Source: Candidatus Nomurabacteria bacterium RIFCSPHIGHO2_12_FULL_37_29 (lineage in GTDB: Bacteria > Patescibacteriota > Minisyncoccia > Phycocordibacterales > UBA9973). From it: a stretch of 64,000 nucleotides of DNA. Positions within the stretch are counted from its first letter, which is position 1, and every line of letters starts with the position of its first letter. The position numbers and the translations under genes are program-made. The notes under the pieces are model-generated. The model had not been told where the DNA came from, searched no databases, and saw only the letters and a program-made list of their open reading frames with translations. Below are positions 3,266-45,924 of this stretch, one piece after another. Location of the stretch: positions 149 to 64,148 of the forward strand of contig MFUJ01000016.1 in assembly GCA_001785675.1 (NCBI GenBank), in the 5' to 3' direction.

Positions 3266-4021
3266 TCAGATCAACCTCTTAATTTTACTCATCACATCCT
3301 TCACCCTTTTCCTCCTTGAGAGTTCTAGGGCAAGTTCATAGATGAGTAGGTCCGAAGACCTAAGGAGCCTTGCTTGCTGTTCAAGCGATCGGAATCCACG
3401 GAAGTATCTTCGACTATGCGCGAACGCAAGTCGAACCATCGAGGCCATGATATCCGAGAGGCATAATTCTCGCTCGAGAGTTGCATTTTCATGCAATTTC
3501 TCAAGCGTTGAGAGTTTCTGCCTGATCTCGTCAGCACACAGCTCAACGATAGATTTCGAGAGCGAGGCGGGGTAGGGAACAAGCAGCTCCCTAAGTCGGA
3601 CACTGATATCCGTAACATCATACAGAGTCTCGGCAGTTGCCAAGTCTCCGCACAACGCTTCTGGCAACCAGTATCCGGTAGCCCAGGGGCGGTGTTGACA
3701 GCCCAGATTCCTGCCCTCAATCCACTCCTCGACCTGCCTAACGAGCAAGGCTGAATCGCAAACTGCGACACCTCCAGAGCCCATCGGCAGATCAAAGCGA
3801 ACACTGTCATCGCACACAAAGAAGTTTCCGGTTGGCCACCGATTCTCTAGCAAAGCTTTGATGGTGTTGGAATATCTTTCAATACTCCCGTCATCACAGC
3901 CTGCCAAAAGGTCGATTTTGCCTTTTGCCGAATTCCTCTTCAGTCCAACATGTAGTAGCACTTTCATGCCATACAATTCACGCAAAACGTGAGACAGATC
4001 GGAGGCTAAGCTATTTTTCAT
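3266..4021 (-). CDS. hypothetical protein, possibly nucleotidyltransferase-like; last gene of the high-GC operon
   Basis: 251-aa ORF with high GC. Its start overlaps the stop of the upstream gene by 4 nt (4018-4021). No firm domain; KGKIDLLAGCDDGS and the helical C-terminus are only weakly NTase-like. Confidence 0.45.
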   Translation of the reverse strand: MKNSLASDLSHVLRELYGMKVLLHVGLKRNSAKGKIDLLAGCDDGSIERYSNTIKALLENRWPTGNFFVCDDSVRFDLPMGSGGVAVCDSALLVRQVEEWIEGRNLGCQHRPWATGYWLPEALCGDLATAETLYDVTDISVRLRELLVPYPASLSKSIVELCADEIRQKLSTLEKLHENATLERELCLSDIMASMVRLAFAHSRRYFRGFRSLEQQARLLRSSDLLIYELALELSRRKRVKDVMSKIKRLI

Positions 4022-5136
4022 AGTGCCTCCTTGTTCCGTTTCGACTCCTCAAGCTCGATAAGAGCCTTCGGAAATCCGAATGTGGACGTTAGATACTCGA
4101 TGTCTGATCCGGTCAGAGGGCCATTACTGCGAGAGGTAAGTTTTGTATATTCCTTCCTCCCACGCTCAAGCCCCTTCTCGAATTTTGACACCTCCTCGGC
4201 AAACACAGTCTGCACCGCATCAGCCGAGGCCCATTGATTTCCTGATATCACGACAAACTCATCAAATGAGATGGATGTCTGTCGGCAGAGGATGAAAGCC
4301 TCTCGGATGAGTTTCCGAAGGACATAATCCGCCGCTTTGTTTCCAGGCCGAAGCCCTTCCGATACCAGGAGTACCGCCGCTTTGCCGAGATCGGCGAGGC
4401 GACACATGATGGCTTGATCCTTTACTTCGGATTGTTCCGTGATGGATTCGATCACGCCTTTCCAGCTCGAGTTTTCGTAATCGCTGCCACAGCATTCGAC
4501 TGCTGTGACGATACGATCAATGCTCGCTCCCGAATCGGCGGCAATCTTCTCCAGGGGAGATTCGAAAAGCGTTTCGCCCAGAAACTCGGTAAAGACCAAG
4601 TTCCAGAGCTCGATCGACTTATCCGTGTCTGGATTTCTCCAGACGATCTCCGTGCGAATACCGCATCGATTCTGGGTCGGAGTAAAGGTGACGTTCTTGT
4701 CATTGCTGACAGTCCTGACACCCAACCTTTCCCATATTTTCTGCGATGTTGCATCTTGTGGATGCACTGTTGCCGACAGCGTGGCAGGGCTGATCCCTGC
4801 ACACACTGTCAGATAATGCCAAGCACTCTCGATCATTACATCCTTCACCTCTTGCTCCTTGCCCTCGTAGAGGGAAAAGTGGCCGAGCATGTCGAATGCA
4901 AGATGGTGCCTTCCCGACAAACCGATCTTCTCCCATCTATCTGTCCGCAAGCATGTCTGAACCGAAACGACACGGGTCTTCTCAGGGATTACTCCATGAG
5001 AGATCGCGTTCTCGAAAACGACACCGCCAGAGATGTTGAACAGGAGCTTAGGGTTTGCGCTTACGATTGGAACGCTGTCTTGCCACTGGAAACCGAAGGT
5101 CCCGAAGTGGCGTCTGATTTCATCATACGTCTTCAT
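4018..5136 (-). CDS. divergent alanyl-tRNA synthetase catalytic-domain homolog (mini-AlaRS-like, 372 aa)
   Basis: Class II AlaRS motifs are present: NPKLLFNISGGVVF, RHHLAFDMLGHFSLY, ELWNLVFTEF, ADSGASIDR and YVLRKLIREA. Motif 3 (GPCGPC) is degenerate (NRCGIRTE). The start is set at the ATG 5136-5134, which forms an ATGA overlap with the radical SAM stop. The longer ORF call to 5430 overlaps the upstream gene by 300 nt. Confidence 0.65.
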   Translation of the reverse strand: MKTYDEIRRHFGTFGFQWQDSVPIVSANPKLLFNISGGVVFENAISHGVIPEKTRVVSVQTCLRTDRWEKIGLSGRHHLAFDMLGHFSLYEGKEQEVKDVMIESAWHYLTVCAGISPATLSATVHPQDATSQKIWERLGVRTVSNDKNVTFTPTQNRCGIRTEIVWRNPDTDKSIELWNLVFTEFLGETLFESPLEKIAADSGASIDRIVTAVECCGSDYENSSWKGVIESITEQSEVKDQAIMCRLADLGKAAVLLVSEGLRPGNKAADYVLRKLIREAFILCRQTSISFDEFVVISGNQWASADAVQTVFAEEVSKFEKGLERGRKEYTKLTSRSNGPLTGSDIEYLTSTFGFPKALIELEESKRNKEAL

Positions 5137-6356
5137 GGAGAACCTCCCATTGCCAGATGTTTGAATACAGTCTGCCTGACTGCGTAGGTGAACTTGCTCA
5201 TCTCGGGATGAGTAACAAGTCCGTGGTTGATATCCCAACTCACTACGTGAGCCGGAATCCCGAGGCTGTCCAAGATACCCTGTGCTCGCTCCGCCGTCAT
5301 ATTGTAGGCTGAGCCTTGAGCGCAGATTCTCCGTTGGGCCAGAGGGCAGCGAGATGCCTCGCATTCTGACCGCGCGAAAATCTGTACCGAAGTGATGCTC
5401 GGAATCTTGAGCATCCGAGTAAGGGCGCACGACGACTTGAGATAGACGGGGATACCGGGAAAGTGTTCGGCGCTCAGTGAGAAGATGGAATCCACCAACT
5501 CCTGCGGCAACAACTTCACATTGTCATCCCGAGGGATGTTCGGCATGGGGAGCTTATGAATCTCCACCAGTCCGTTCTCGATACCTTCCGTCCAGCGCAG
5601 ACCGCCCGGAACGATCATGTCGATGACTTCGCCGTAGTGTTTTTTCACCCACAGCATCATCATCTCGATTCTGTCCCGATTACCGCTCCACTCAGGAACG
5701 ATCGGTCGCATGTACCACGCAATGGTGGCTCCTGCTTCCTTGGCTTCCTCAGAATTGAGAAAGCGGTTGTTATGCGCTGGCTCAATCGTGTCTGGATTGT
5801 CTGCCCAGCACAGCGACAGCATCAAGCCGCGCGTTGCATTCGAGATGCGGGCGAAGTCAAGCTTCCTCCCTTTAGGAACGCCACCTTTGGTAACGATCCA
5901 GAAGGGATTCCGTAGACCGCGCCGGACGAATCCGTCCATGATCTCGAATGTACTGTCTACGACAGCAGGAGCGAACGGCTCCGTGCTTGCTGTCCCGATG
6001 CTGATGATTGTCTCATCAGCAATGAAGAACGGATGCTTGACCAGTTCATCGAGGATTTGATCCACGCTAAACTGATTGCGCCGTTTCGGTTTTCTCGGCA
6101 TGGTGCCTCGCTCGTCGAGATCTTGGTAGGTCCCTTGAACGTGGCAGTACCGGCATTGCCAGGCGCAACCGATCCAGAGATCGATGCTCAGCGAGCTGTT
6201 GGACACACTGACTGATGAAAGGGGATGATTACTATCTGGCACGAGAGCTCCATACGTGTATTCACGCAAGGAAAACTCCTGTCCCGTAGTCGTGCCCCTG
6301 ATTTGGACGAGCGGCTCAGAATTAATGGCCGCGAAGTATTCCATCTTGGAATTCAT
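5133..6356 (-). CDS. radical SAM protein (SPL/DNA-photolyase-like family)
   Basis: CAWQCRYC is a CxxxCxxC cluster in the GC..C.YC context seen in spore-photoproduct-lyase-like radical SAM enzymes. 4-nt overlaps on both sides. Confidence 0.6.
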   Translation of the reverse strand: MNSKMEYFAAINSEPLVQIRGTTTGQEFSLREYTYGALVPDSNHPLSSVSVSNSSLSIDLWIGCAWQCRYCHVQGTYQDLDERGTMPRKPKRRNQFSVDQILDELVKHPFFIADETIISIGTASTEPFAPAVVDSTFEIMDGFVRRGLRNPFWIVTKGGVPKGRKLDFARISNATRGLMLSLCWADNPDTIEPAHNNRFLNSEEAKEAGATIAWYMRPIVPEWSGNRDRIEMMMLWVKKHYGEVIDMIVPGGLRWTEGIENGLVEIHKLPMPNIPRDDNVKLLPQELVDSIFSLSAEHFPGIPVYLKSSCALTRMLKIPSITSVQIFARSECEASRCPLAQRRICAQGSAYNMTAERAQGILDSLGIPAHVVSWDINHGLVTHPEMSKFTYAVRQTVFKHLAMGGSP

Positions 6357-7093
6357 GTGACTTCTCCTTTCAGGTAGTTGATGTTTCGTGTGACTTGTTC
6401 TTCCGTTGTCATACCAATGACAACGGAAGTGCCGAGGGTGAGTGCATTTCGTGCAACCATCTCGGCCGAGTGCGGGTCAGTGAGCAACTTCCCCTGTTTG
6501 AACAGACTTCTCAAGAGAACCTCCTTTTTAAGATCAAGCAGATATGGGAGCTGTTGAAGCGCCCAAGTCTGCTCAGTGTTGAAAGGAGCTTCAATCACGT
6601 CGATGTGCGGCAAAACCGCTTCAGCGACAGGATATGAGAAATTGTCGGGTAGGGAAATTCCTACACGCTTGACGATGCCTTCATCCTTAAGCCCCTTAAG
6701 GCACTCAAGGATTACTACTGCTTCTGACGACCACGTGGGCAACCAGTTGTGCAGAAGTACCGTGTCGATGGAAGATCGCCGTAGCCTTTCCAATGATCCG
6801 TACACACTTCGATGTATGCCATCTCGTGAGTAAAATCTTTGGATCGGTTCAGGTGCTTCCAGATTCGGTTTTGATGCTGCCGGAATTTTGGTCACAATGA
6901 CCGCATCTTCCGGTAGGCATGCGCCAAGCATCTCCTCGACCTTGCCTCCACCATAGACGGCCGCCGTATCAAAACGACGGATACCGGAGCTGATGGCGAA
7001 AAGCAGAAGCGATTCAATATAGGCAGGGGACAGGTTTTTGAACTGTCCTCCAAGTTGCCACGTACCGAAGTAGAGGCGATCAAACCAGTCCAT
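6353..7093 (-). CDS. aldo/keto reductase family oxidoreductase
   Basis: GTWQLGG...GIRRFDTAAVYGGGKVEEMLG is the aldo/keto reductase N-terminal signature. 246 aa; first gene of the minus-strand operon. Confidence 0.7.
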   Translation of the reverse strand: MDWFDRLYFGTWQLGGQFKNLSPAYIESLLLFAISSGIRRFDTAAVYGGGKVEEMLGACLPEDAVIVTKIPAASKPNLEAPEPIQRFYSRDGIHRSVYGSLERLRRSSIDTVLLHNWLPTWSSEAVVILECLKGLKDEGIVKRVGISLPDNFSYPVAEAVLPHIDVIEAPFNTEQTWALQQLPYLLDLKKEVLLRSLFKQGKLLTDPHSAEMVARNALTLGTSVVIGMTTEEQVTRNINYLKGEVT

Positions 7094-7275
7094 GTTTTCT
7101 CCTTAATTTTTAGGTTGTAAAAGAGCGTGGAATTGCGATAAGTTCTAGCACAAAACTACAATATATTCTCTAAAATGTCAATGGGTATCCCAAAAGGCGT
7201 ATCCTTGCCGTAATTATAATTGTGTGTTAATGTAATGCCGGAACGAAAACCCTAAACCACAGAAAGGACCTTGTA

Positions 7276-8568
7276 ATGAAACTGCTATATAAGACGACCG
7301 AGGAAGTGCGCCAGACCTTTCTGAGCCACTTTCTCAAGCATGATCACCAGCTCATCGATCCATCGGGGATCATTCCCAAGAACGATTCGACTCTCATGTT
7401 CATCAACTCGGGTATGGCCCCGCTCAAGCCATATTTCACGGGCCAAGCGAAACCGCCGTATCCGCGCCTGACGAACGTGCAGGACTGCATCAGGTTTGTG
7501 GACGTTGAAAGCGTCGGCGATTCCTATCACGGAACGAACTTCCGCATGATGGGTTCCTGGTCCTTCGGAGACTACTTCAAAGAACGGGCCATCGAGCTTG
7601 CCTTTGAACTCATCACCGAGGGATTCGGTATTCCTGCTGAACGTCTCTCCGCCACGGTATTCCTGGCAGACGAAAGTCTGCCAGGCGTACCGAGCGACGA
7701 AGAATCGGCTCGCATCTGGGAGAAATTCTTACCGCGAGATCGAATCATCGGACGGCCACCAGTAGACAACTTCTGGGGTCCAGCGGGAACCAGTGGTCCA
7801 TGTGGCCCTTGCACGGAAGTCTTCTTTGATCGAGGCGAGGAATTCGCCGAGAAAGAAACGGACGACGTGCTGGTTCCTGGGCGACACATCGAGATCTGGA
7901 ATGCCGGAGTGTTCATGCAATACTTCAAAGACGAGCAAGGGAATTTCTCTCCGCTCCCTATGAAGTGCGTGGATACGGGAGCGGGCCTTGAGCGCTTCGC
8001 CATGATCCTACAGGGCCGTGCCTCGATCCACGAGATCGATCAGTACGGCTCGTCCTACCAACTCATCAATCAGAGAATTGGTGACACGGCATGGACGAGG
8101 GTCATTCTCGACCACATCAAGACCTCGATTCTGATGATTCGTGAGGGTATCATTCCGAGCAACACTCGGGAGGGTTACCTTCTCCGTCGTGCGCTTCGGC
8201 GTGCGATGATCGGCATCTTCCTGCGAGGGATCAATCTGACCATTCTTCAGGAGTGGGCAGACTCTCTCAGCGAAGTGATCGATAACAAGGACCTGACCAT
8301 GCGTCAGAAATCTGTTATTGCACACTGGCTCAGCGAGGAGCGTGATAGCTTCGAAAAGCTGATGCATCGCAGCAGAAAGTATCTCGATAAGATCGTCATG
8401 GCTAAGGAGTTGGATGCGCAACATGCATTCACTTTGAAAACCGGCGTGGGTATTCCCGAAGATCTTCTGGAGGAATTCTGTTCTCGTCACGGCATTCCAT
8501 TTCCGAAGATTGAGTTCCTCCGACTTATTGAGGGGCATAAGGATGTCTCGCGTCGGCCGAAGAAGTAG
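7276..8568 (+). CDS. truncated alanyl-tRNA synthetase catalytic core (430 aa, no editing or C-Ala domains)
   Basis: Near-canonical AlaRS motifs: NSGMAPLKPYF, FRMMGSWSFGDYFK, GPCGPCTEVFFDRG, IEIWNAGVFMQYF, VDTGAGLERFAMIL and GYLLRRALRRA. The ORF ends in RRPKK* immediately before a terminator. High GC. Confidence 0.7.
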   Translation: MKLLYKTTEEVRQTFLSHFLKHDHQLIDPSGIIPKNDSTLMFINSGMAPLKPYFTGQAKPPYPRLTNVQDCIRFVDVESVGDSYHGTNFRMMGSWSFGDYFKERAIELAFELITEGFGIPAERLSATVFLADESLPGVPSDEESARIWEKFLPRDRIIGRPPVDNFWGPAGTSGPCGPCTEVFFDRGEEFAEKETDDVLVPGRHIEIWNAGVFMQYFKDEQGNFSPLPMKCVDTGAGLERFAMILQGRASIHEIDQYGSSYQLINQRIGDTAWTRVILDHIKTSILMIREGIIPSNTREGYLLRRALRRAMIGIFLRGINLTILQEWADSLSEVIDNKDLTMRQKSVIAHWLSEERDSFEKLMHRSRKYLDKIVMAKELDAQHAFTLKTGVGIPEDLLEEFCSRHGIPFPKIEFLRLIEGHKDVSRRPKK

Positions 8569-8696: not shown

Positions 8697-9548
8697 ATGT
8701 TAAAGATCGGGATTGTTGGTCTGCCAAATGTGGGGAAGTCCACGCTTTTTAATGCGTTGACGAAAAAGAGTGTACCAGCAGAAAATTATCCCTTTTGTAC
8801 TATTGATCCATCGGTAGGTATTGTTCCTGTGCCAGATGAAAGATTAGATAAACTATCAGCCATGTCTAAGTCCAAGAAAAAGATTCCTGCAGTGGTAGAA
8901 TTTGTAGATATTGCGGGATTGGTGAAGGGGGCAAGCGAGGGCGCAGGACTCGGTAATAAATTCCTTTCCCATATTAGAGAAGTGGATGCAATCATTGAAG
9001 TGGTGCGAATTTTTGAAGATAAAGATATGATTCATGTTCACGATAATATTGACCCGCTTTTTGATATTGAAGTTATAAATTTTGAACTTGAACAAGCTGG
9101 AATTACAAAACCGACTTTGTATGTGCTTAACACATCAGAAGCGGCAGAGAGTGTGAAAAAAGATTTTATATCAAAACTTCCAGGCCCACATATTGAAATT
9201 GATCCTATTTTTGGAACTGGTTTGGATAATCTAGTACAAGCAAGCTACGATCTTTTAAATTTAATTACTTTTTTCACTACCGGCGAAGATGAATCGAGGG
9301 CTTGGACTACGTTTCGTGGAGCGACCGCGCCTTTTGCTGGTCGCGCTATCCATAATGATTTTAAAGAAAAATTTATCCGCGCAGAAGTAATTAACTGGAA
9401 AGATTTATTAGACTGTGGCCGTTCAGGCTCTGAAGAGCCCTCAGGCTCGATGAGCTCTTATGTTGTCGCTCGCTCCAAAGGACTAGTGCGAACTGAAGGT
9501 AAAGAGTATATTGTGCAAGATGGAGATGTGATTGAATTTTTAATATGA
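8697..9548 (+). CDS. ychF: ribosome-binding ATPase YchF (Obg-like ATPase), short form
   Basis: IGIVGLPNVGKSTLFNALT...NYPFCTIDP...VEFVDIAGLVKGAS at the N-terminus and a C-terminal TGS-like YIVQDGDVIEF. 283 aa, versus about 363 aa typically. Confidence 0.75.
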   Translation: MLKIGIVGLPNVGKSTLFNALTKKSVPAENYPFCTIDPSVGIVPVPDERLDKLSAMSKSKKKIPAVVEFVDIAGLVKGASEGAGLGNKFLSHIREVDAIIEVVRIFEDKDMIHVHDNIDPLFDIEVINFELEQAGITKPTLYVLNTSEAAESVKKDFISKLPGPHIEIDPIFGTGLDNLVQASYDLLNLITFFTTGEDESRAWTTFRGATAPFAGRAIHNDFKEKFIRAEVINWKDLLDCGRSGSEEPSGSMSSYVVARSKGLVRTEGKEYIVQDGDVIEFLI

Positions 9549-9674
9549 GAAATAAAATTTTGAATACAATTTTTCTCCGGTACGAATTTTTTGAAGCTTA
9601 AAAAATCCTGAAGTTTGTTCGCCGTCGCTCACAAAACCCCTGCGAAAAGTTTATTCAAAATTTTATAAATCAAC

Positions 9675-11675: not shown

Positions 11676-14084
11676 GTGATGAAAGAATACGACCATAAAA
11701 AAATCGAGAAAAAGTGGCAAACTATTTGGCAAGAAAACAAAGTATATAAAACTCTGGACAACTCCAAGAAAAAAAAGTTTTATGTCTTGGATATGTTTCC
11801 TTATGTTTCCGGGGAAGGTATTCACGTCGGGCATCCGAAAGGATACATAGCGACTGATGTGGTTTCCAGAATGAAAAGGATGCAGGGTTTCAATGTGTTG
11901 CACCCAATGGGCTTTGATGCCTTCGGTCTTCCGGCGGAGAATTACGCCATCAAGACGAAGACAAATCCTGTGATATCAGTAGCAAAAAATATTGCTAGAT
12001 TTAAAAAACAATTAGCAATTATTGGTTTTGATTATGACTGGGAGAGAGAAGTCAATACTTCTGACCCGAAGTTTTATAAATGGACTCAGTGGATATTTTT
12101 GAAGCTTTTGGAAAAGGGTTTGGCTTACGAATCTAATGAACCGGTGAACTGGTGTCCAAAAGACAGAACTGTTTTAGCCAATGAAGATGTGGAAGATGGA
12201 AAATGTGAAAGATGCGGAACTATTGTTGAGAAGAAGCCCATTCGTCAGTGGGTTTTGAAAATCACTGATTATGCTGACAGACTGCTTGCAGACTTAGATG
12301 AACTCGATTGGCCGGAATCTATAAAAGAGTCACAGAAGAATTGGATCGGCAGGAGTGAAGGTGCAGAAATTAATTTTCAAATTATATTTAAAAATGGAGG
12401 TAAACCTGGCTTGATACCAATTTTTACCACGAGGCCAGATACTATCTTTGGTGCTACATACTTAGTTCTTTCTCCTGAACATCCTTGGGTGACTCTGGCA
12501 ATAGACGATAATCACAAAGGAGTGATAGATAATGTCCTTGAGGTAGGGAAGTATGTTAAAGAAGTTAAAAACAAAAATGACATAGAGCGTACATCTCTAG
12601 ACAAAGTAAAGACAGGGGTAGAGCTCAAAGGAGTAAAAGCAATTAATCCAGCAACGAGAGAAGAAATTCCTGTCTGGATCGCAGACTATGTACTTCTGAA
12701 CTACGGTACTGGGGCAGTCATGGCAGTACCAGCCGATGATGCGCGCGACAGAGAGTTTTCAGAAAAATTTAAGTTGCCAATTTTTGAAAATTATCAAAAA
12801 GCCGGGTTTGAAGATTTTGGGAAAAAAGTTATAAAATTTAAACTTCGGGACTGGGTATTTTCTCGCCAGAGGTATTGGGGTGAACCGATTCCTATCTTGC
12901 GTGTCGTAGATCCTGAGGGGATCGAAGGAATGGGCAAGGTTATTCCAGTTAAAGAAAAAGATTTGCCTGTTAAATTGCCAAAAGTTAAATCTTACGAGCC
13001 GACAGGAACTGCAGAGTCGCCTTTGGCTAATGTGTCAAATTGGATAAATGTAAAAAAAGGCCAGAAAATCTTTAAGAGAGAGAGTAACACCATGCCTCAA
13101 TGGGCTGGTAGTTCTTGGTATTATCTTCGTTATATGGATCCAAAGAATAACAAAGCATTGGTTGATAAAAAAAAAGAAAAATATTGGAATATGGTGGATT
13201 TGTATGTTGGTGGCGCAGAACATGCGACTAGACACTTGATATACGCGAGGTTTTGGCATAAATTCCTCTATGATATAGGTGTTGTTGAAAATAAAGAACC
13301 TTTCAAAAGACTTCAACACGTGGGGCTTATTATAGCTTCTGATGGAAGAAAGATGTCAAAAAGGTTTGGAAATATTATAAATCCAGATACTGTAATTCAT
13401 ACTTTCGGTGCAGACACACTACGACTTTATGAAATGTTTATGGGGCCATTTGATCAAGCAGTTGCTTGGAGTGAGGAAGCAATAATAGGCCCAAGGAGAT
13501 TTTTAGAGAGAGTTTGGAAAATTGGAAAGAAAGTAAAAGAAAGGGAGACAAAGGATTTTCTGAGCCTTCGCCCTCGGAGTCGTAAGGGCAGGGAACCCAC
13601 GACTCTTGAAAATCCTTTGTCTCCCTTTCTTCAGAAACTCCTACACAAAACTATCAAAAAAGTTACAGAAGACATCGAAGCAATGAAATTTAATACTGCG
13701 ATTTCTTCACTCATGATTTTTATGAATGAAGTTGAGAAGTTTGATTCGCTCTCGTCAGATGTGTATAAAAAATTCTTACAGATTCTTGCGCCATTTGCGC
13801 CGCATATCACCGAAGAGTTATGGAATATGCTTGGAGAGAAAAAGTCTATCCATCTTTCATCCTGGCCAAAATATGATTCAGAGAAAATAAAAGACAAAGA
13901 AATAAAAATCATAGTACAAATAAACGGCAAAGTCAGAGCCGAGATTTTAGTAGAAGGGGATGAGACAGAAGAAAATATAAAGCAAAAATCTCTCAAGAAT
14001 GAAGCTGTCTCAAAATATACAGAAGATAAAGAAATAAAAAAAATAATTTATGTTAAAAACAGACTTATTAACATTGTACTGTAG
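11676..14084 (+). CDS. leuS: leucyl-tRNA synthetase
   Basis: HVGH (HIGH) motif in YVLDMFPYVSGEGIHVGHPKGY, KMSKRFGN (KMSKS), a CP1 editing domain, and the LeuRS-specific C-terminus. Confidence 0.9.
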   Translation: MMKEYDHKKIEKKWQTIWQENKVYKTLDNSKKKKFYVLDMFPYVSGEGIHVGHPKGYIATDVVSRMKRMQGFNVLHPMGFDAFGLPAENYAIKTKTNPVISVAKNIARFKKQLAIIGFDYDWEREVNTSDPKFYKWTQWIFLKLLEKGLAYESNEPVNWCPKDRTVLANEDVEDGKCERCGTIVEKKPIRQWVLKITDYADRLLADLDELDWPESIKESQKNWIGRSEGAEINFQIIFKNGGKPGLIPIFTTRPDTIFGATYLVLSPEHPWVTLAIDDNHKGVIDNVLEVGKYVKEVKNKNDIERTSLDKVKTGVELKGVKAINPATREEIPVWIADYVLLNYGTGAVMAVPADDARDREFSEKFKLPIFENYQKAGFEDFGKKVIKFKLRDWVFSRQRYWGEPIPILRVVDPEGIEGMGKVIPVKEKDLPVKLPKVKSYEPTGTAESPLANVSNWINVKKGQKIFKRESNTMPQWAGSSWYYLRYMDPKNNKALVDKKKEKYWNMVDLYVGGAEHATRHLIYARFWHKFLYDIGVVENKEPFKRLQHVGLIIASDGRKMSKRFGNIINPDTVIHTFGADTLRLYEMFMGPFDQAVAWSEEAIIGPRRFLERVWKIGKKVKERETKDFLSLRPRSRKGREPTTLENPLSPFLQKLLHKTIKKVTEDIEAMKFNTAISSLMIFMNEVEKFDSLSSDVYKKFLQILAPFAPHITEELWNMLGEKKSIHLSSWPKYDSEKIKDKEIKIIVQINGKVRAEILVEGDETEENIKQKSLKNEAVSKYTEDKEIKKIIYVKNRLINIVL
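13543..13625. repeat. 83-bp palindromic element inserted in-frame within leuS
   Basis: Perfect 18-bp terminal inverted repeats, gggagacaaaggattttc and gaaaatcctttgtctccc, flank a GC-rich core with its own hairpin (gccct..agggc). The element encodes the extra peptide KDFLSLRPRSRKGREPTTLENPLSP. Confidence 0.6.
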
Positions 14085-30715: not shown

Positions 30716-31909
30716 CTATTTTAGTCTTAAATTACCACTTGCTTTTATATTGGAAGCCTTGCCAAATTTTCCTTTCTTTTTTGCATAGAGCAAGTATCCC
30801 GCTATGCCAATCATTAAAGAATTATCTCCCACAAGTTCTTTTGGGGGAAATAGAAGTTTGATTTTATTACTTGCCTGTCCTTTGACGCGACTTGCAATTT
30901 TTTTTATTTCATTTCTCAAGTGTTGATTCGCAGCCACTCCTCCCGCAACAATAAGAGTTTTTACTTTATATTTTTCTATCGCTTTTTTTGTTTTATAAAT
31001 CAAACATTCAATGGCCGCGTTTTCAAATTCTAAAGCTATTTTTATTTTTGTTTTTTCATCTAGTAAACCAATTTTCTTGATTAAGTAAAGAACCGCCGTT
31101 TTCAGTCCCGAAAAAGAAAAATCTAAATTCTTAGAATGAAGCATTGGGCGCGGGAGGGAAAAAGAAAATAAGCTTTGATGGGACTCCACAGGGCGACGGC
31201 CCGAGGACTGAGTAAATTTTTCAGCAGAAAAATTACGACCCTGAAAAGTTTTATTTTCTTTTTCCCTCTCCCTCCCTTCTTCTGCCAATTTAGATATTTG
31301 TGGACCGCCAGGGTAGGGGAGGTCGAGCATCCGAGCAACTTTATCAAAAGCTTCGCCGACGGCATCGTCCAAGGTTTCGCCAATTATTTCATATCGCATC
31401 CACTTTTTACTGAGTACTAACTGTGTGTGTCCACCAGAAACCAAAAGAGAAAGTGTTGGAGTTTTCACTTTGGGTATGGTAAATTTTCCTTTATTTTTTC
31501 CAAATACAGAAAGTATATGTCCTTCCATGTGATTTACAGGCACCACGGGCACATTCCACTTTTTTGTTAACTCCTGCGCAAAAGTTATGCCTGCCCAGAG
31601 CGCTGGTTCTAATCCTGGACCATAAGTCACAGCTATTAAGTCAATCGGTGCTTTGGTCGTTAGGTCTTGCCTAGCGACGTTGTTTAGATGGGCTTGCTTT
31701 AATGCTTGTTCTAGCAGAATTGGTAAATTTTTAATATGTTCTTGTTTAGCGAGCATTGGATATACTCCGCCATAAGGAATATGGATTTTTATTTGCGAAT
31801 TTGAAATATCCGCCAAAACTTTGAAAGAAGCATTATTAATGCCTCCTTTTGCTTCCACTATACTTATTCCAGTATCGTCGCAAGATGTTTCAATCGAAAG
31901 AATGATCAT
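30716..31909 (-). CDS. tsaD: tRNA N6-adenosine threonylcarbamoyltransferase TsaD (Kae1/YgjD family)
   Basis: MIILSIETSCDDTGISIV and GVAANQHLR. Metal-binding HxxH in NHMEGHIL. 397 aa with an internal insertion. Confidence 0.85.
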   Translation of the reverse strand: MIILSIETSCDDTGISIVEAKGGINNASFKVLADISNSQIKIHIPYGGVYPMLAKQEHIKNLPILLEQALKQAHLNNVARQDLTTKAPIDLIAVTYGPGLEPALWAGITFAQELTKKWNVPVVPVNHMEGHILSVFGKNKGKFTIPKVKTPTLSLLVSGGHTQLVLSKKWMRYEIIGETLDDAVGEAFDKVARMLDLPYPGGPQISKLAEEGREREKENKTFQGRNFSAEKFTQSSGRRPVESHQSLFSFSLPRPMLHSKNLDFSFSGLKTAVLYLIKKIGLLDEKTKIKIALEFENAAIECLIYKTKKAIEKYKVKTLIVAGGVAANQHLRNEIKKIASRVKGQASNKIKLLFPPKELVGDNSLMIGIAGYLLYAKKKGKFGKASNIKASGNLRLK

Positions 31910-36322: not shown

Positions 36323-37564
36323 ATGCTAAAATCAAATAACGCAAAAAAAATATATCTAGATTATGCATCCAGTTCGCTTCTTAACTCCGCGAATCCAGGA
36401 GCAATTCATGAATTTGGAATAAAAGAAAAAAACAAACTTGAAGAAGCCAGGACAACTGTTGCAAAGACTTTAAATGCATATCCCAATGAAATTATTTTCA
36501 CATCCGGCGCAACGGAAAGTAACAACTTGGCTATTTTAGGGTTAGTTCAGAATTTTAAGCAATATTCTAAGTTGCCACACATAATAACTACAAATATCGA
36601 ACATTCATCTGTTTTAGAAATTTGTAAACATTTAGAAAAAACAAAACAAGCAGAAGTGACTTATATAAAAGTAGAATTGAACGGAATAATTGATCCAAAG
36701 AAAATAAAAAAAGCCCTTAAAAAAAATACCATCTTAGTTTCGGTTATGTATGCGAATAATGAAATTGGTACGGTCCAGCCGATACAAGATATTGCAAAAG
36801 AGATTAGACATTGGAAAAAAGGCAAAGATAGCTTTTTGGAGCACAGATATTTTTCTGTTGAAAAATTCCTCGTGCTTACGCCGTCAAGAGTTTCTAAAAA
36901 GCTATCTTTGCCTTTTTTCCATACCGATGCTACACAAGCAATAAATTATTTACCCATAAATGTTCAAAAATTAGGAATTGATTTAATGTCTTTTAATAGT
37001 GCTAAAATTTATGGACCTAAAGGGGTCGGTGTCTTATATGTAAAAAAATACACACCTGTCAGGAAAATTATGTTCGGTGGAGATCAAGAAAGGGGACTAC
37101 GACCGGGAACAGAAAATGTGGTCGGGGCTATTGTGTTAGCCTCTGCCATAGAAATTACTGAAAAAATAAAAAAAAAGGAAACTATTCGTTTAACCAAACT
37201 CCGAGATTATTTTTTTAATGAGCTACAAGCAATGTCAAAGACGATCTTTAGCACTGGATTAATAGTAAACGGTGACTTAACAAACAGATTACCCAATAAT
37301 GTGAATATTAGTTTTAAAAATATTCCGAGCGACCTTCTGGTAATTGAGTTATCAGCTAGAGGTATCATGGCTTCTGCTAAAAGTGCCTGTAAAGCTGGAG
37401 ACAGTAAAGCTTCGCATGTAATAAAAGCGATTAATCCAAAAGCCAAAGACACAGATGGATCTTTAAGATTTTCCCTAGGCAAAGATACTACAAAAAAAGA
37501 TATTGATTATACTGTCAAAGCTTTTACTCAAATTTTGACAAAACTAAAAAAGTGGTATAATTAA
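36323..37564 (+). CDS. cysteine desulfurase (IscS/NifS, class V aminotransferase)
   Basis: IYLDYASSS near the N-terminus, TSGATESNNLAI, a PLP-lysine region SFNSAKIYGPKGVGVLYV, and active-site loop SAKSACKAG. Confidence 0.75.
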   Translation: MLKSNNAKKIYLDYASSSLLNSANPGAIHEFGIKEKNKLEEARTTVAKTLNAYPNEIIFTSGATESNNLAILGLVQNFKQYSKLPHIITTNIEHSSVLEICKHLEKTKQAEVTYIKVELNGIIDPKKIKKALKKNTILVSVMYANNEIGTVQPIQDIAKEIRHWKKGKDSFLEHRYFSVEKFLVLTPSRVSKKLSLPFFHTDATQAINYLPINVQKLGIDLMSFNSAKIYGPKGVGVLYVKKYTPVRKIMFGGDQERGLRPGTENVVGAIVLASAIEITEKIKKKETIRLTKLRDYFFNELQAMSKTIFSTGLIVNGDLTNRLPNNVNISFKNIPSDLLVIELSARGIMASAKSACKAGDSKASHVIKAINPKAKDTDGSLRFSLGKDTTKKDIDYTVKAFTQILTKLKKWYN

Positions 37565-42874: not shown

Positions 42875-43017
42875 ATATTTTTTGTCCCAAAAAAGGGGCA
42901 ATAGTTAAGATCCTGTAATCGCTAAACCACAAGACCACTATTACCCCTTTTCTGGATTGAAAATATGGAATCTTATTGTCTCGTGGTTTAGCTTATTAAT
43001 TATATCATGTTTTAAAG

Positions 43018-45225: not shown

Positions 45226-45924
45226 AAATTTTTGTTGTTAAATTGATAAACTGCTTCTAATAAACACACAAGCGAAGTCAGCTCAACTCGAGCTTGAGCC
45301 TTGTCAATTGGTTGACCATACTCTTCGAGATAGATGGCCACATATTTTTCTATTTGCTTCTCGGTAATTGGCATAAATAGAAAATCCACTTTTGGCTTGG
45401 CAGGCTACTGAGCAAGCGACCTGCAAACCCAAAAATGGATTTATTAGTGCTCAGTATTTACTGCCAAACAAAACAACCGCACTTCATAATGCGGTTTATG
45501 AAAGCAAAAAGCTGCCGTCATATTCCATGTCATCATGAAATAAAACGGCAGCCTCTCGATTTTTCCTGCCCAGTGAGATTCCTAGTCTCTTGTACAACCT
45601 TCTGTCTTAGAGAAGGCGCTCCGATTTACCGGAGAGGTGTGCATATATAATAATGCTAAAAAAATTCAAGTCAAATGAGGGGTGTTAATAAGTTTAAGAA
45701 AAAAAGTAAGATGTGATAAGATGTTGTTATAACTTAATAAGAAAGACCTAACCCTTATAGCGATATGAGATATGGTCAAAAGACCCATGGAAGACACTGA
45801 ACCCCTCGTTCAGCAACTCTTCCATGGGCTATACAGGGAAACTTGTATAGGGTCGTAAGACCTAGCTGGCGTGGGGTTCTGTGTTTTTCCGCGCTAGCTT
45901 ATTATCAGCTAGCTTTTTATTTTT

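Follow-up and report, generated by a model that had tools for sequence, protein, structure and literature searches.

A palindromic insert in the leuS gene of a Nomurabacteria genome is probably a copy of a small hairpin-shaped mobile element

The leuS gene, encoding leucine--tRNA ligase (LeuRS), is interrupted in frame by a 95-nt inverted repeat with perfect arms in a 64,000-nt stretch (hereafter the window) of the genome of Candidatus Nomurabacteria bacterium RIFCSPHIGHO2_12_FULL_37_29 (contig MFUJ01000016.1). The repeat can be viewed, with a probability of about 0.72, as a copy of a small non-autonomous, hairpin-shaped mobile element which has spread in Nomurabacteria and Paceibacterota, here called family 1. 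Members of the family feature a common GC-rich core, enclosed by inverted arms which change from site to site.

A preliminary description of the sequence had reported an 83-bp palindrome with 18-bp termini lying in frame within leuS. Both 18-mers are found at 13543-13560 (+) and 13608-13625 (-) with 0 mismatches. By chance 0.08 matches would be expected, and 2 were not attained in any of 100 shuffles. The repeat is longer than had been claimed, as the arms measure 24 bp, are 100% complementary (13537-13560 / 13608-13631) and are separated by a 47-nt spacer. When the window was shuffled 20 times, perfect stems with loops of at most 130 nt measured 14 bp at the longest. Folded in silico as RNA, the element region reaches -53.2 kcal/mol, compared to -28.8 +/- 3.6 for shuffles (z = -6.8). 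Neither the 83-nt span 13543-13625 nor the full 95-nt repeat is a multiple of three, and the frame of the leuS open reading frame (ORF) is unbroken. The LeuRS of the window is 100% identical to P0001, the leucine--tRNA ligase of Candidatus Nomurabacteria bacterium RIFCSPHIGHO2_02_FULL_37_45. The palindrome is not an assembly artefact, because the identical protein is recorded on 21 contigs from several assemblies. In an AlphaFold2 model of LeuRS (mean predicted local distance difference test score, pLDDT, 81.5) residues of the left arm fall at the end of helix 599-629, core-encoded residues form a loop, with pLDDT < 50 at 635-645, and the next helix spans residues 649-667. The insert is thus predicted to lie where two helices of the C-terminal helical region are joined.

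The core was searched by using the pattern TCGCCCTCGGAG-N6-16-GGAACCCACGA in a collection including one genome per GTDB species, from which the source genome is absent. The scan identified 81 matches at 75 loci in 31 genomes, where about 0.2 random matches are expected by estimate; the pattern has no match in viral contigs. Core-bearing genomes belong almost all to Nomurabacteria, Paceibacterota or unclassified Patescibacteria, and most matches per genome were found in RIFCSPHIGHO2_02_FULL_35_13 (13) and GW2011_GWA1_36_15 (8). A coincidental palindrome lacking other copies, for which the preliminary description had left room, is contradicted by these numbers. Additional copies of the 18-bp termini, looked for in the 64-kb window, correspond only to the element itself; a search of this type would wrongly suggest that no other copies exist, because the core, and not the termini, is repeated. 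Two copies (L062 and L113) reside on the 268-kb contig JAMPXW010000002.1 of a metagenome-assembled genome (MAG) labelled as Burkholderiales, which may be a mis-binned Patescibacteria contig or denote a transfer.

Inverted arms of 9-30 bp (median 21) surround the core in all the 77 family-1 copies which have enough flank to be analyzed, and are perfect in 20 of them. Alignment A4, made of 80 sequences, features 28 invariant columns and an almost invariant core, a conservation partly forced by the search pattern. Bases change on both sides in 25 of the 26 stem pairs. Paired cells in the stem amount to 79%; the figure is 60% for shuffles and does not exceed 62% when the register is slid. The covariation score is 0.45, versus 0.15 for shuffles. 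A4 pair 26/70 is A-U in 43 copies and C-G in 34, and the base of the stem covaries among GAG/CTC, GCG/CGC and GGCG/CGCC. The asymmetry between G-T and A-C mismatches was discarded as a test of pairing at the RNA or DNA level, since mismatches are inherited subfamily features and their counts are not independent. The inner hairpin GCCCT...AGGGC, previously regarded as a feature of the element, is not typical of the family, AGGGC being present in 6 of the 77 copies only. A covariance model derived from A4 (R1) scores the leuS copy of the window at 103.5 bits (E = 4e-21) and the L006 copy at 92.6 bits. No Rfam family overlaps the element at gathering threshold; in permissive searches only generic long-hairpin miRNA-precursor models were retrieved, at 12-34 bits against thresholds of 47-500.

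Conservation of the arms is restricted to the inner 8-9 bp (AAAAA[A/T]TTT), where entropy is low, and entropy rises to ~1.7-1.9 bits at position 10 and beyond. Outer arms are alike in only one of 1485 copy pairs, formed by the orthologous loci L046 and L094; three copies in one genome (L051, L098, L061) have identical cores and unrelated arms. Because outer arms are alike only between orthologous loci, arms are a property of the site, not of the element. The 18-bp termini had been interpreted as terminal inverted repeats of the element; they turn out to be locus-specific, one being ancestral leuS sequence, and the unit repeated is the GC-rich core plus 8-9 bp of inner arm.

The leuS repeat is not the only hairpin of this type in the window. 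Three conserved genes, leuS, tsaD and the cysteine desulfurase gene iscS, contain its three longest inverted repeats, none of which breaks the frame. Four perfect stems reach 15 bp or more when loops of up to 130 nt are allowed, and each encloses a core; the only other perfect stem found measures 13 bp and has a 4-nt loop. The arms of the window elements are mutually unrelated, and the iscS, tsaD and intergenic elements (Table 1) have in common the core motif ATTTTTCTGYTGAAAAATT ... GCCGTC. A single family for all the window elements was considered and rejected: R1 assigns 103.5 bits to leuS, 18.7 bits to the tsaD element and does not match iscS, and these elements are therefore treated as a separate family.

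Family 2 was surveyed by scanning metagenomes with the iscS/tsaD core motif. The scan returned at least 120 loci and at least 108 distinct elements. The canonical core, ~55 nt long, reads CACGGATATTTTTCTGCTGAAAAATTCCTCGTGCTCGCGCCGTCGCGCTC(S)CAAGT and forms two small hairpins, the second of which covaries (GCGC/GCGC, GGCC/GGCC, GCTC/GAGC, GCTT/AAGC, GCCC/GGGC, GCAC/GTGC). Arms are entirely locus-specific, measure up to 30 bp, and are perfect in 43 of 88 copies among the matches listed. Among the same matches, 60 of 81 copies are intergenic and 21 reside in uninterrupted ORFs. At L231 a family-2 core is centred in a perfect palindrome with arms of at least 98 bp, far beyond any other copy. A third core, TTCGCGCTTTACCCT..., is common to L005, L007 and L008; its 15-mer has 32 matches in viral contigs, all outside a hairpin context and thus attributable to chance.

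Table 1. Coordinates of the leuS element, its host gene and the other hairpin elements of the window
Feature	Positions	Strand	Basis or details
leuS (leucine--tRNA ligase) ORF, host of the element	11676..14084	+	ORF list and translation; 802 codons
Left arm AAGAAAGGGAGACAAAGGATTTTC, encodes KERETKDF	13537..13560	+	perfect 24-bp complement of 13608-13631
Conserved 47-nt core TGAGCCTTCGCCCTCGGAGTCGTAAGGGCAGGGAACCCACGACTCTT, read as LSLRPRSRKGREPTTL	13561..13607	+	core match in 81 places, 31 genomes
GAG, 5' half of the covarying stem base within the core, pairs with CTC 13603-13605	13562..13564	+	A4 pair 26/70
CTC, 3' half of the covarying stem base	13603..13605	+	covariation, variant list
Right arm GAAAATCCTTTGTCTCCCTTTCTT, encodes ENPLSPFL	13608..13631	+	ancestral leuS coding sequence per unfilled L239
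Second-family hairpin, in frame, cysteine desulfurase (iscS) ORF 36323-37564	36812..36921	+	26-29 bp arms, 52-58 nt core with ATTTTTCTGTTGAAAAATT
Second-family-like hairpin, in frame, tsaD ORF 30716-31909 (-)	31146..31276	-	18 bp perfect arms (26 bp at 88%), 79-nt core
Intergenic hairpin between ychF-like GTPase and S-adenosylmethionine (SAM)-methyltransferase genes	9552..9666	+	15-bp perfect arms, 85-nt core related to the tsaD element
Peptides expected if the inserts are translated: DFLSLRPR, GREPTTLENPLSPFLQK, EPTTLENPLSPFLQK (LeuRS); NFSAEK (TsaD)			

Filled and empty sites were compared by separate flank alignments, global MAFFT alignments being misleading. The unfilled leuS ortholog L239 (protein P0008) is 79% identical to the window in the LeuRS region compared. 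At the site of the right arm L239 reads GATAAAAATCCT---TCTGATTTTCTT, which encodes KNPSDFL; its codons GAT AAA AAT CCT TCT GAT TTT CTT are to be compared with GAA AAT CCT TTG TCT CCC TTT CTT in the right arm of the window. Neither left arm nor core has a counterpart in L239, and the unfilled ortholog L240 likewise lacks the left arm. The left arm, the inner ~9-13 nt of which resemble the conserved inner repeat of the family, is probably a newly made inverted copy of the right arm. One arm is ancestral at other sites too. In the unfilled iscS L236 the sequence TCTAAAAATTTATCTTTGCCTTTTTTTCAT matches the right arm of the window element at 27/30 positions, and no palindrome is found there. The ancestral flank corresponds to the left outer arm in L045 vs L103 and L090 vs L114, to the right one in L085 vs L100. 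Length gains approximate the core plus one arm, being 21-24 aa in leuS, 25-27 aa in iscS (where the segment grows from a baseline of 40 aa to 65-67 aa), 29-33 aa in tsaD. The net gain in leuS is about 72 nt (left arm plus core), or ~24 codons relative to unfilled orthologs, fewer than the 27 residues previously estimated.

Codon position, frame and length are common to the leuS copies of the window, L094 and L046. Between the arms of the window and L094 copies 5 positions have changed, and each change has its mirror image in the opposite arm, with 0 mismatches. Orthologs of iscS carry at the element site the arms of the window copy around an inverted core, as in L237, or hairpins of other families. 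Arms which are locus-specific, complementary, and ancestral on one side fit a stem built from local DNA by fold-back or template-switch synthesis.

A promoter-proximal site, located between a TATAAT box and the ATG of one and the same gene, hosts family-1 elements in L082 and L103, and family-2 elements in L135, L171 and L194. A new -10-like box (TATAAT or CATAAT), placed ~10 nt upstream of the ATG, is often found at this site in the arm closest to the start codon.

An insertion at this position of LeuRS had been proposed, and the alignment of 120 LeuRS homologs places it exactly there. The segment RFLERVW...HKTIKKV measures 37-41 residues in most homologs, and many lineages have at the same spot 10-30 additional residues, mutually unrelated. 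The DNA of six other LeuRS genes with inserts at this spot was inspected, and all inserts are hairpins; the LeuRS site is a hairpin hotspot. Arms are perfect and 17 bp long in L005, and measure ~21 bp in L007, ~25 bp in L008, ~20 bp in L006; a pair of 13-bp palindromes is found in L001, and nested hairpins in L003. The core of L006 equals that of the window in reverse complement. Among LeuRS 77-83% identical to that of the window, L239 and L240 are empty, L006 hosts the same core inverted, L007 an element of another family, and all four group with the window in the LeuRS tree. L094 and L046, 59-61% identical to the window, cluster with L080. A single ancestral leuS insertion transmitted by vertical descent alone was rejected, as the tree puts the window in a clade of empty or differently filled sites relative to L094 and L046. 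The leuS site appears from sequence comparisons to have been repeatedly gained, lost, flipped or replaced, gains and losses being inseparable by parsimony. At the position of the tsaD element many other TsaD proteins from CPR bacteria (candidate phyla radiation) have unrelated inserts of 20-35 aa. LeuRS also accommodates far larger insertions or fusions. Among the homologs P0002, P0004-P0011 and others, many Nomurabacteria LeuRS measure 940-1000 aa and include a NUDIX domain (PF00293); in others (P0007, P0009, P0014) an internal DUF559/MTES_1575 endonuclease-like domain is found.

Family-1 elements are intergenic in 54 of 77 cases; the remaining 23 are in frame within uninterrupted ORFs. In 17 coding copies the frame is ..FGAFALGDIGQGTHDA... 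At a fixed codon position TGA is found in 34/54 intergenic copies, and in 0/17 coding copies read in that frame; three leuS copies retain the TGA out of frame, as CTG AGC. The exclusion of TGA from the coding frame matches what is predicted by selection for read-through translation, and goes against bypass or excision of the insert. Peptides recurrently encoded by the elements are FGAFALGDIGQGTHDA, FLSLRPRS..GREPTTL, and YFSAEKFLVLAPSRSQ. A composite peptide query, including all the open frames of the three window elements, retrieved only the host proteins and one extra TsaD, P0130, the segments being too short for significant E-values.

According to the preferred reading, that of a mobile hairpin element, the transferable unit would consist of the GC-rich ~47-nt core and the ~8-9 bp A/T-rich inner repeat, the remaining stem being made locally. 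In leuS the right arm would be pre-existing coding sequence, and the left arm its inverted copy laid beside the core, most likely by DNA synthesis that folds back (template switch) across the hairpin, upon insertion or later. In this way the arms would also be kept perfectly complementary, and the core could be flipped. Movement of the unit would presumably depend on a mobilising enzyme. The leuS copy would survive because its frame has no stops and because its site, a link between two helices in the anticodon-binding region of LeuRS, is tolerant; tolerant site and stop-free frame also suggest that the insert is translated as an extra disordered loop. A broader proposal, put forward tentatively and held to be rather less probable than not, is that the elements represent a new class of mobile DNA in bacteria, namely minimal hairpin-loop modules of 47-55 nt, devoid of terminal repeats of their own, which obtain the stem from the target by fold-back and generate an inverted target duplication of 10 to >90 bp. 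Intrastrand template switching would then maintain a perfect stem and flip the loop. Since arms rich in purines or in pyrimidines contain no stops, elements of this kind could live in essential CPR genes and keep adding loops to proteins.

Several observations weigh against the mobile element reading. R1 finds a single family-1 copy, that in leuS, in the 64-kb window. No transposase or mobilising gene was found linked to family 1, nor a transposase bounded by its core, in the ~1.6 Mb of loci around the copies. No insertion polymorphism was found within a population, and strain variants of the three host proteins all keep the inserts. The side of the ancestral arm is not constant relative to the orientation of the core, and one arm would be equally expected in unfilled relatives after loss of the core and the other arm. 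Empty orthologs of the promoter site (L045 and L085) have neither arm. Orthologous copies have cores which vary less than the genes hosting them, and this leaves room for functional constraint on the core; the tsaD insert is 93% identical to that of P0130, the whole proteins being 69% identical, which could denote function and not selfish spread. Lastly, perfect palindromes without a core exist. In L080 leuS (~3900-3960, RIFCSPHIGHO2_01_FULL_37_25) arms of 22 bp flank an 11-nt loop, and at the L055 mnmA site an 11-bp stem has a 6-nt loop. Such palindromes may be precursors or remnants, in line either with hairpins which exist before the core is inserted or with a core that was lost.

Elements could accordingly be envisaged as targeting hairpins. 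Palindromes would arise first, by template switching in A/T-rich quasi-palindromic codon runs, the core, a tiny mobile unit, would then enter specifically their single-stranded loop or centre, and the arms be perfected. Integration into loops has precedents, since IS1397 and ISKpn1 integrate into loops of repetitive extragenic palindromes (REPs). The core-less palindromes of L080 and L055, found at sites equivalent to filled ones, are in line with this order of events, as are the imperfect 14-bp palindrome in P0148 iscS and the short A/T palindromes often held by unfilled sites (AAAATC...GATTTT in L239, TCTTAAGA in L103). Two unrelated families have settled at one promoter site and in the leuS, iscS and tsaD loops, and lengths fall in three steps (baseline, +5-7 aa, +20-27 aa), as in a two-step history. 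On the other hand, stems of at least 15 bp in the window all enclose a core, so that core-less precursors are rare. The unfilled sites L100, L045, L085 and L236 have no palindrome, the arms at L231 are implausibly long for a pre-existing palindrome, and loss of the core could equally give core-less palindromes. On balance this sequence of events is unlikely.

A role as structured RNA or DNA signal selected by the host, for instance a site for RNase III or processing, a pause in translation, or a signal for replication or uptake, is a less promising explanation, and we regard it as improbable. High conservation of the tsaD insert relative to its host speaks for it. The same may be said of four orthologous coding copies (L043, L064, L075, L088) having identical cores and flanks ~67-85% identical, of covariation in the family-1 stem and in the second small hairpin of family 2, and of the mirrored differences between window and L094 arms. 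Covariation between copies may, however, be inherited from diverging source copies. A signal is hard to reconcile with cores found in both orientations at one site, as in L006 vs the window leuS and L237 vs the window iscS, with copies spread in unrelated genes in three reading frames and ~70% intergenic, and with presence or absence differing among LeuRS which are ~80% identical. Pairs in the stem are almost all Watson-Crick with few G-U, and no Rfam family is matched.

It is very improbable that the insert is left untranslated, by ribosomal bypass or mRNA excision, yielding an unchanged LeuRS. Ribosome-skipped inserts occur in Magnusiomyces mitochondria (byp elements) and in T4 gene 60. Palindromic inserts bypassed in translation are known from mitochondria, as discussed in PMC6649704, and the stable 24-bp stem would bring the junctions of the leuS insert together. 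Yet coding copies are always stop-free and in frame, the TGA variant being absent from 17/17 read in that frame, no matched take-off and landing codons are found at the base of the stem, and no ribozyme or intron family is matched. A lineage-specific LeuRS loop, or a chance or chimeric palindrome, is hardly credible: the segment varies in length across bacteria and the window has no second 18-mer, but the shuffling and folding results (0/100; z = -6.8), the 81 core matches elsewhere, the 21 contigs and the hairpin nature of the six other inserts all speak against it.

The preliminary description had compared the insert to Rickettsia palindromic elements (RPEs) or to MITEs (miniature transposable elements with inverted repeats). 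The comparison holds in that the repeats form a dispersed, multi-copy palindromic family colonising both intergenic DNA and coding sequences in frame; the layout is not that of a classical MITE. The RPE family was described by Ogata et al. 2000, as summarised in PMC10969869. RPEs are short palindromic repeats of a host with a reduced genome, present in many copies and sorted into several families; a large fraction of the copies sits in frame within unrelated housekeeping genes and adds a stretch of peptide where it is tolerated, features found also here (PMC10969869). RPE copies share the whole sequence, whereas here only the core and a stem of 8-9 bp are common; moreover, the host belongs to Patescibacteria, and the unit measures ~65-80 nt versus ~100-150 nt. 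Comparison with RPEs is by description, and membership is not claimed. Classical MITEs, such as Correia, ERIC, RUP and Nezha, similarly combine small size, lack of coding content and multiple copies, form hairpins, lie mostly between genes and occasionally give rise to in-frame gene fusions (PMC10969869, PMC3184786). Family-1 elements are small, measuring 65-114 nt, and multi-copy as MITEs are. MITEs, however, feature family-wide terminal inverted repeats matching a parent insertion sequence (IS) and a direct target duplication. Here the arms are locus-specific, conservation being limited to the inner 8-9 bp, and no direct duplication is found outside the arms in 77 copies; filled and empty sites reveal an inverted copy of one flank, an inner-arm palindromic A/T duplication being possible. 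A parent IS sharing the ends of the element was not found in the ~1.6 Mb of loci around the copies, a search which did not extend to whole genomes.

REPs have conserved stems and variable loops, are typically extragenic, and are mobilised by REP-associated tyrosine transposases (RAYTs), which are Y1 HUH enzymes. Family 1 resembles the REP/REPIN-RAYT systems because made of hairpin repeats, and because Y1_Tnp genes with their own REP palindromes are present in these genomes. It differs in having a variable stem and a conserved loop, and the Y1 genes are flanked by other palindromes. Y1_Tnp (IS200/RAYT-like) genes were found in 5 of ~200 loci, and none in the window. The palindromes flanking them (TGTTCAACAC.. 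in L007, ACTTAGTAGTTGG.. in L101, TACGAAGGGCGGTCCTT.. in L157) are different from the cores described above. In L001, leuS hosts two in-frame pairs of the 13-bp palindrome AAGGACNGTCCTT, at 11839-11874 and 12112-12151. A similar palindrome (AAGGGCGGTCCTT / AAGGACCGCCCTT) flanks the Y1_Tnp (RAYT-like) gene of L157, at 8051-8097 and 8800-8860. The REP type AAGG[A/G]C.G.CCTT found near Y1 genes resembles the in-frame palindromes of L001 leuS, suggesting that REP-type sequences also enter coding regions in the clade. Single-strand HUH systems thus appear active in the clade, without a tie to family 1. MITEs of the type of palindrome-associated transposable elements (PATEs), derived from IS200/IS605, have sub-terminal hairpins, lack terminal inverted repeats and target-site duplications, and insert 3' of a fixed tetra- or pentanucleotide. 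The cores described here contain small conserved hairpins and Y1 genes are present in the clade; no fixed flanking tetranucleotide is definable, as the arms mask the boundaries.

Two mitochondrial systems deserve mention. Double-hairpin elements, a term used in PMC10085805, and GC clusters of fungal mitochondria are tiny GC-rich mobile hairpin modules of AT-rich genomes, which can sit in frame in coding genes. The family-2 core similarly includes two small hairpins. Differently from the repeats described here, these modules are organellar and no long locus-specific outer stem has been reported for them, the comparison being by description. Coding palindromes in mitochondria of Nematomorpha are, like those found here, perfect inverted repeats within coding genes; both arms are translated, and gains and losses are dynamic (PMC6649704). 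Their arms are apparently kept identical by conversion or template switching, a mechanism invoked also for the correction of quasi-palindromes (PMC6649704). Nematomorpha palindromes, however, do not contain a conserved repeated core and do not form a dispersed family; here a core is always in the loop.

Both core families are abundant in groundwater MAGs and metagenomes, and the window alone holds hairpin elements within three essential genes, leuS, iscS and tsaD. The genomes of CPR bacteria, or Patescibacteria, are tiny and regarded as poor in mobile DNA. In the literature searched, whose coverage leaves out subscription journals, no paper was found to describe elements of a palindromic or repeat kind in genomes of Nomurabacteria, Parcubacteria or CPR. 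Some of the hitherto unexplained insertions and differences in length among CPR proteins are accounted for by the elements, which also complicate annotation and alignment, and mark tolerant surface loops. A conserved loop combined with a stem copied from the target departs from transposon models, and makes these repeats a tractable case for the creation, upkeep and inversion of palindromes in bacterial chromosomes. Should the fold-back model be true, the chemistry of integration would be distinct.

The window has additional features. A 15-nt inverted repeat, 93% complementary, with a 42-nt spacer, is found at 42921-42992, in the gap between two minus-strand genes; ARAGORN detects no tRNA there. 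A full-length LOOT RNA (Rfam RF03000; 80.7 bits, threshold 46.4) resides in intergenic DNA at 45745-45863 (+). The region 4001-8000 has a GC content of 51-53%, compared to ~37% of the genome. It includes two ORFs, 4018-5430 (-) and 7276-8568 (+), with a class II alanyl-tRNA synthetase (AlaRS) catalytic domain, a fragment of an aldo/keto reductase (6353-7093, -) and an unassigned ORF, and may correspond to foreign DNA or to AlaRS-like paralogs.

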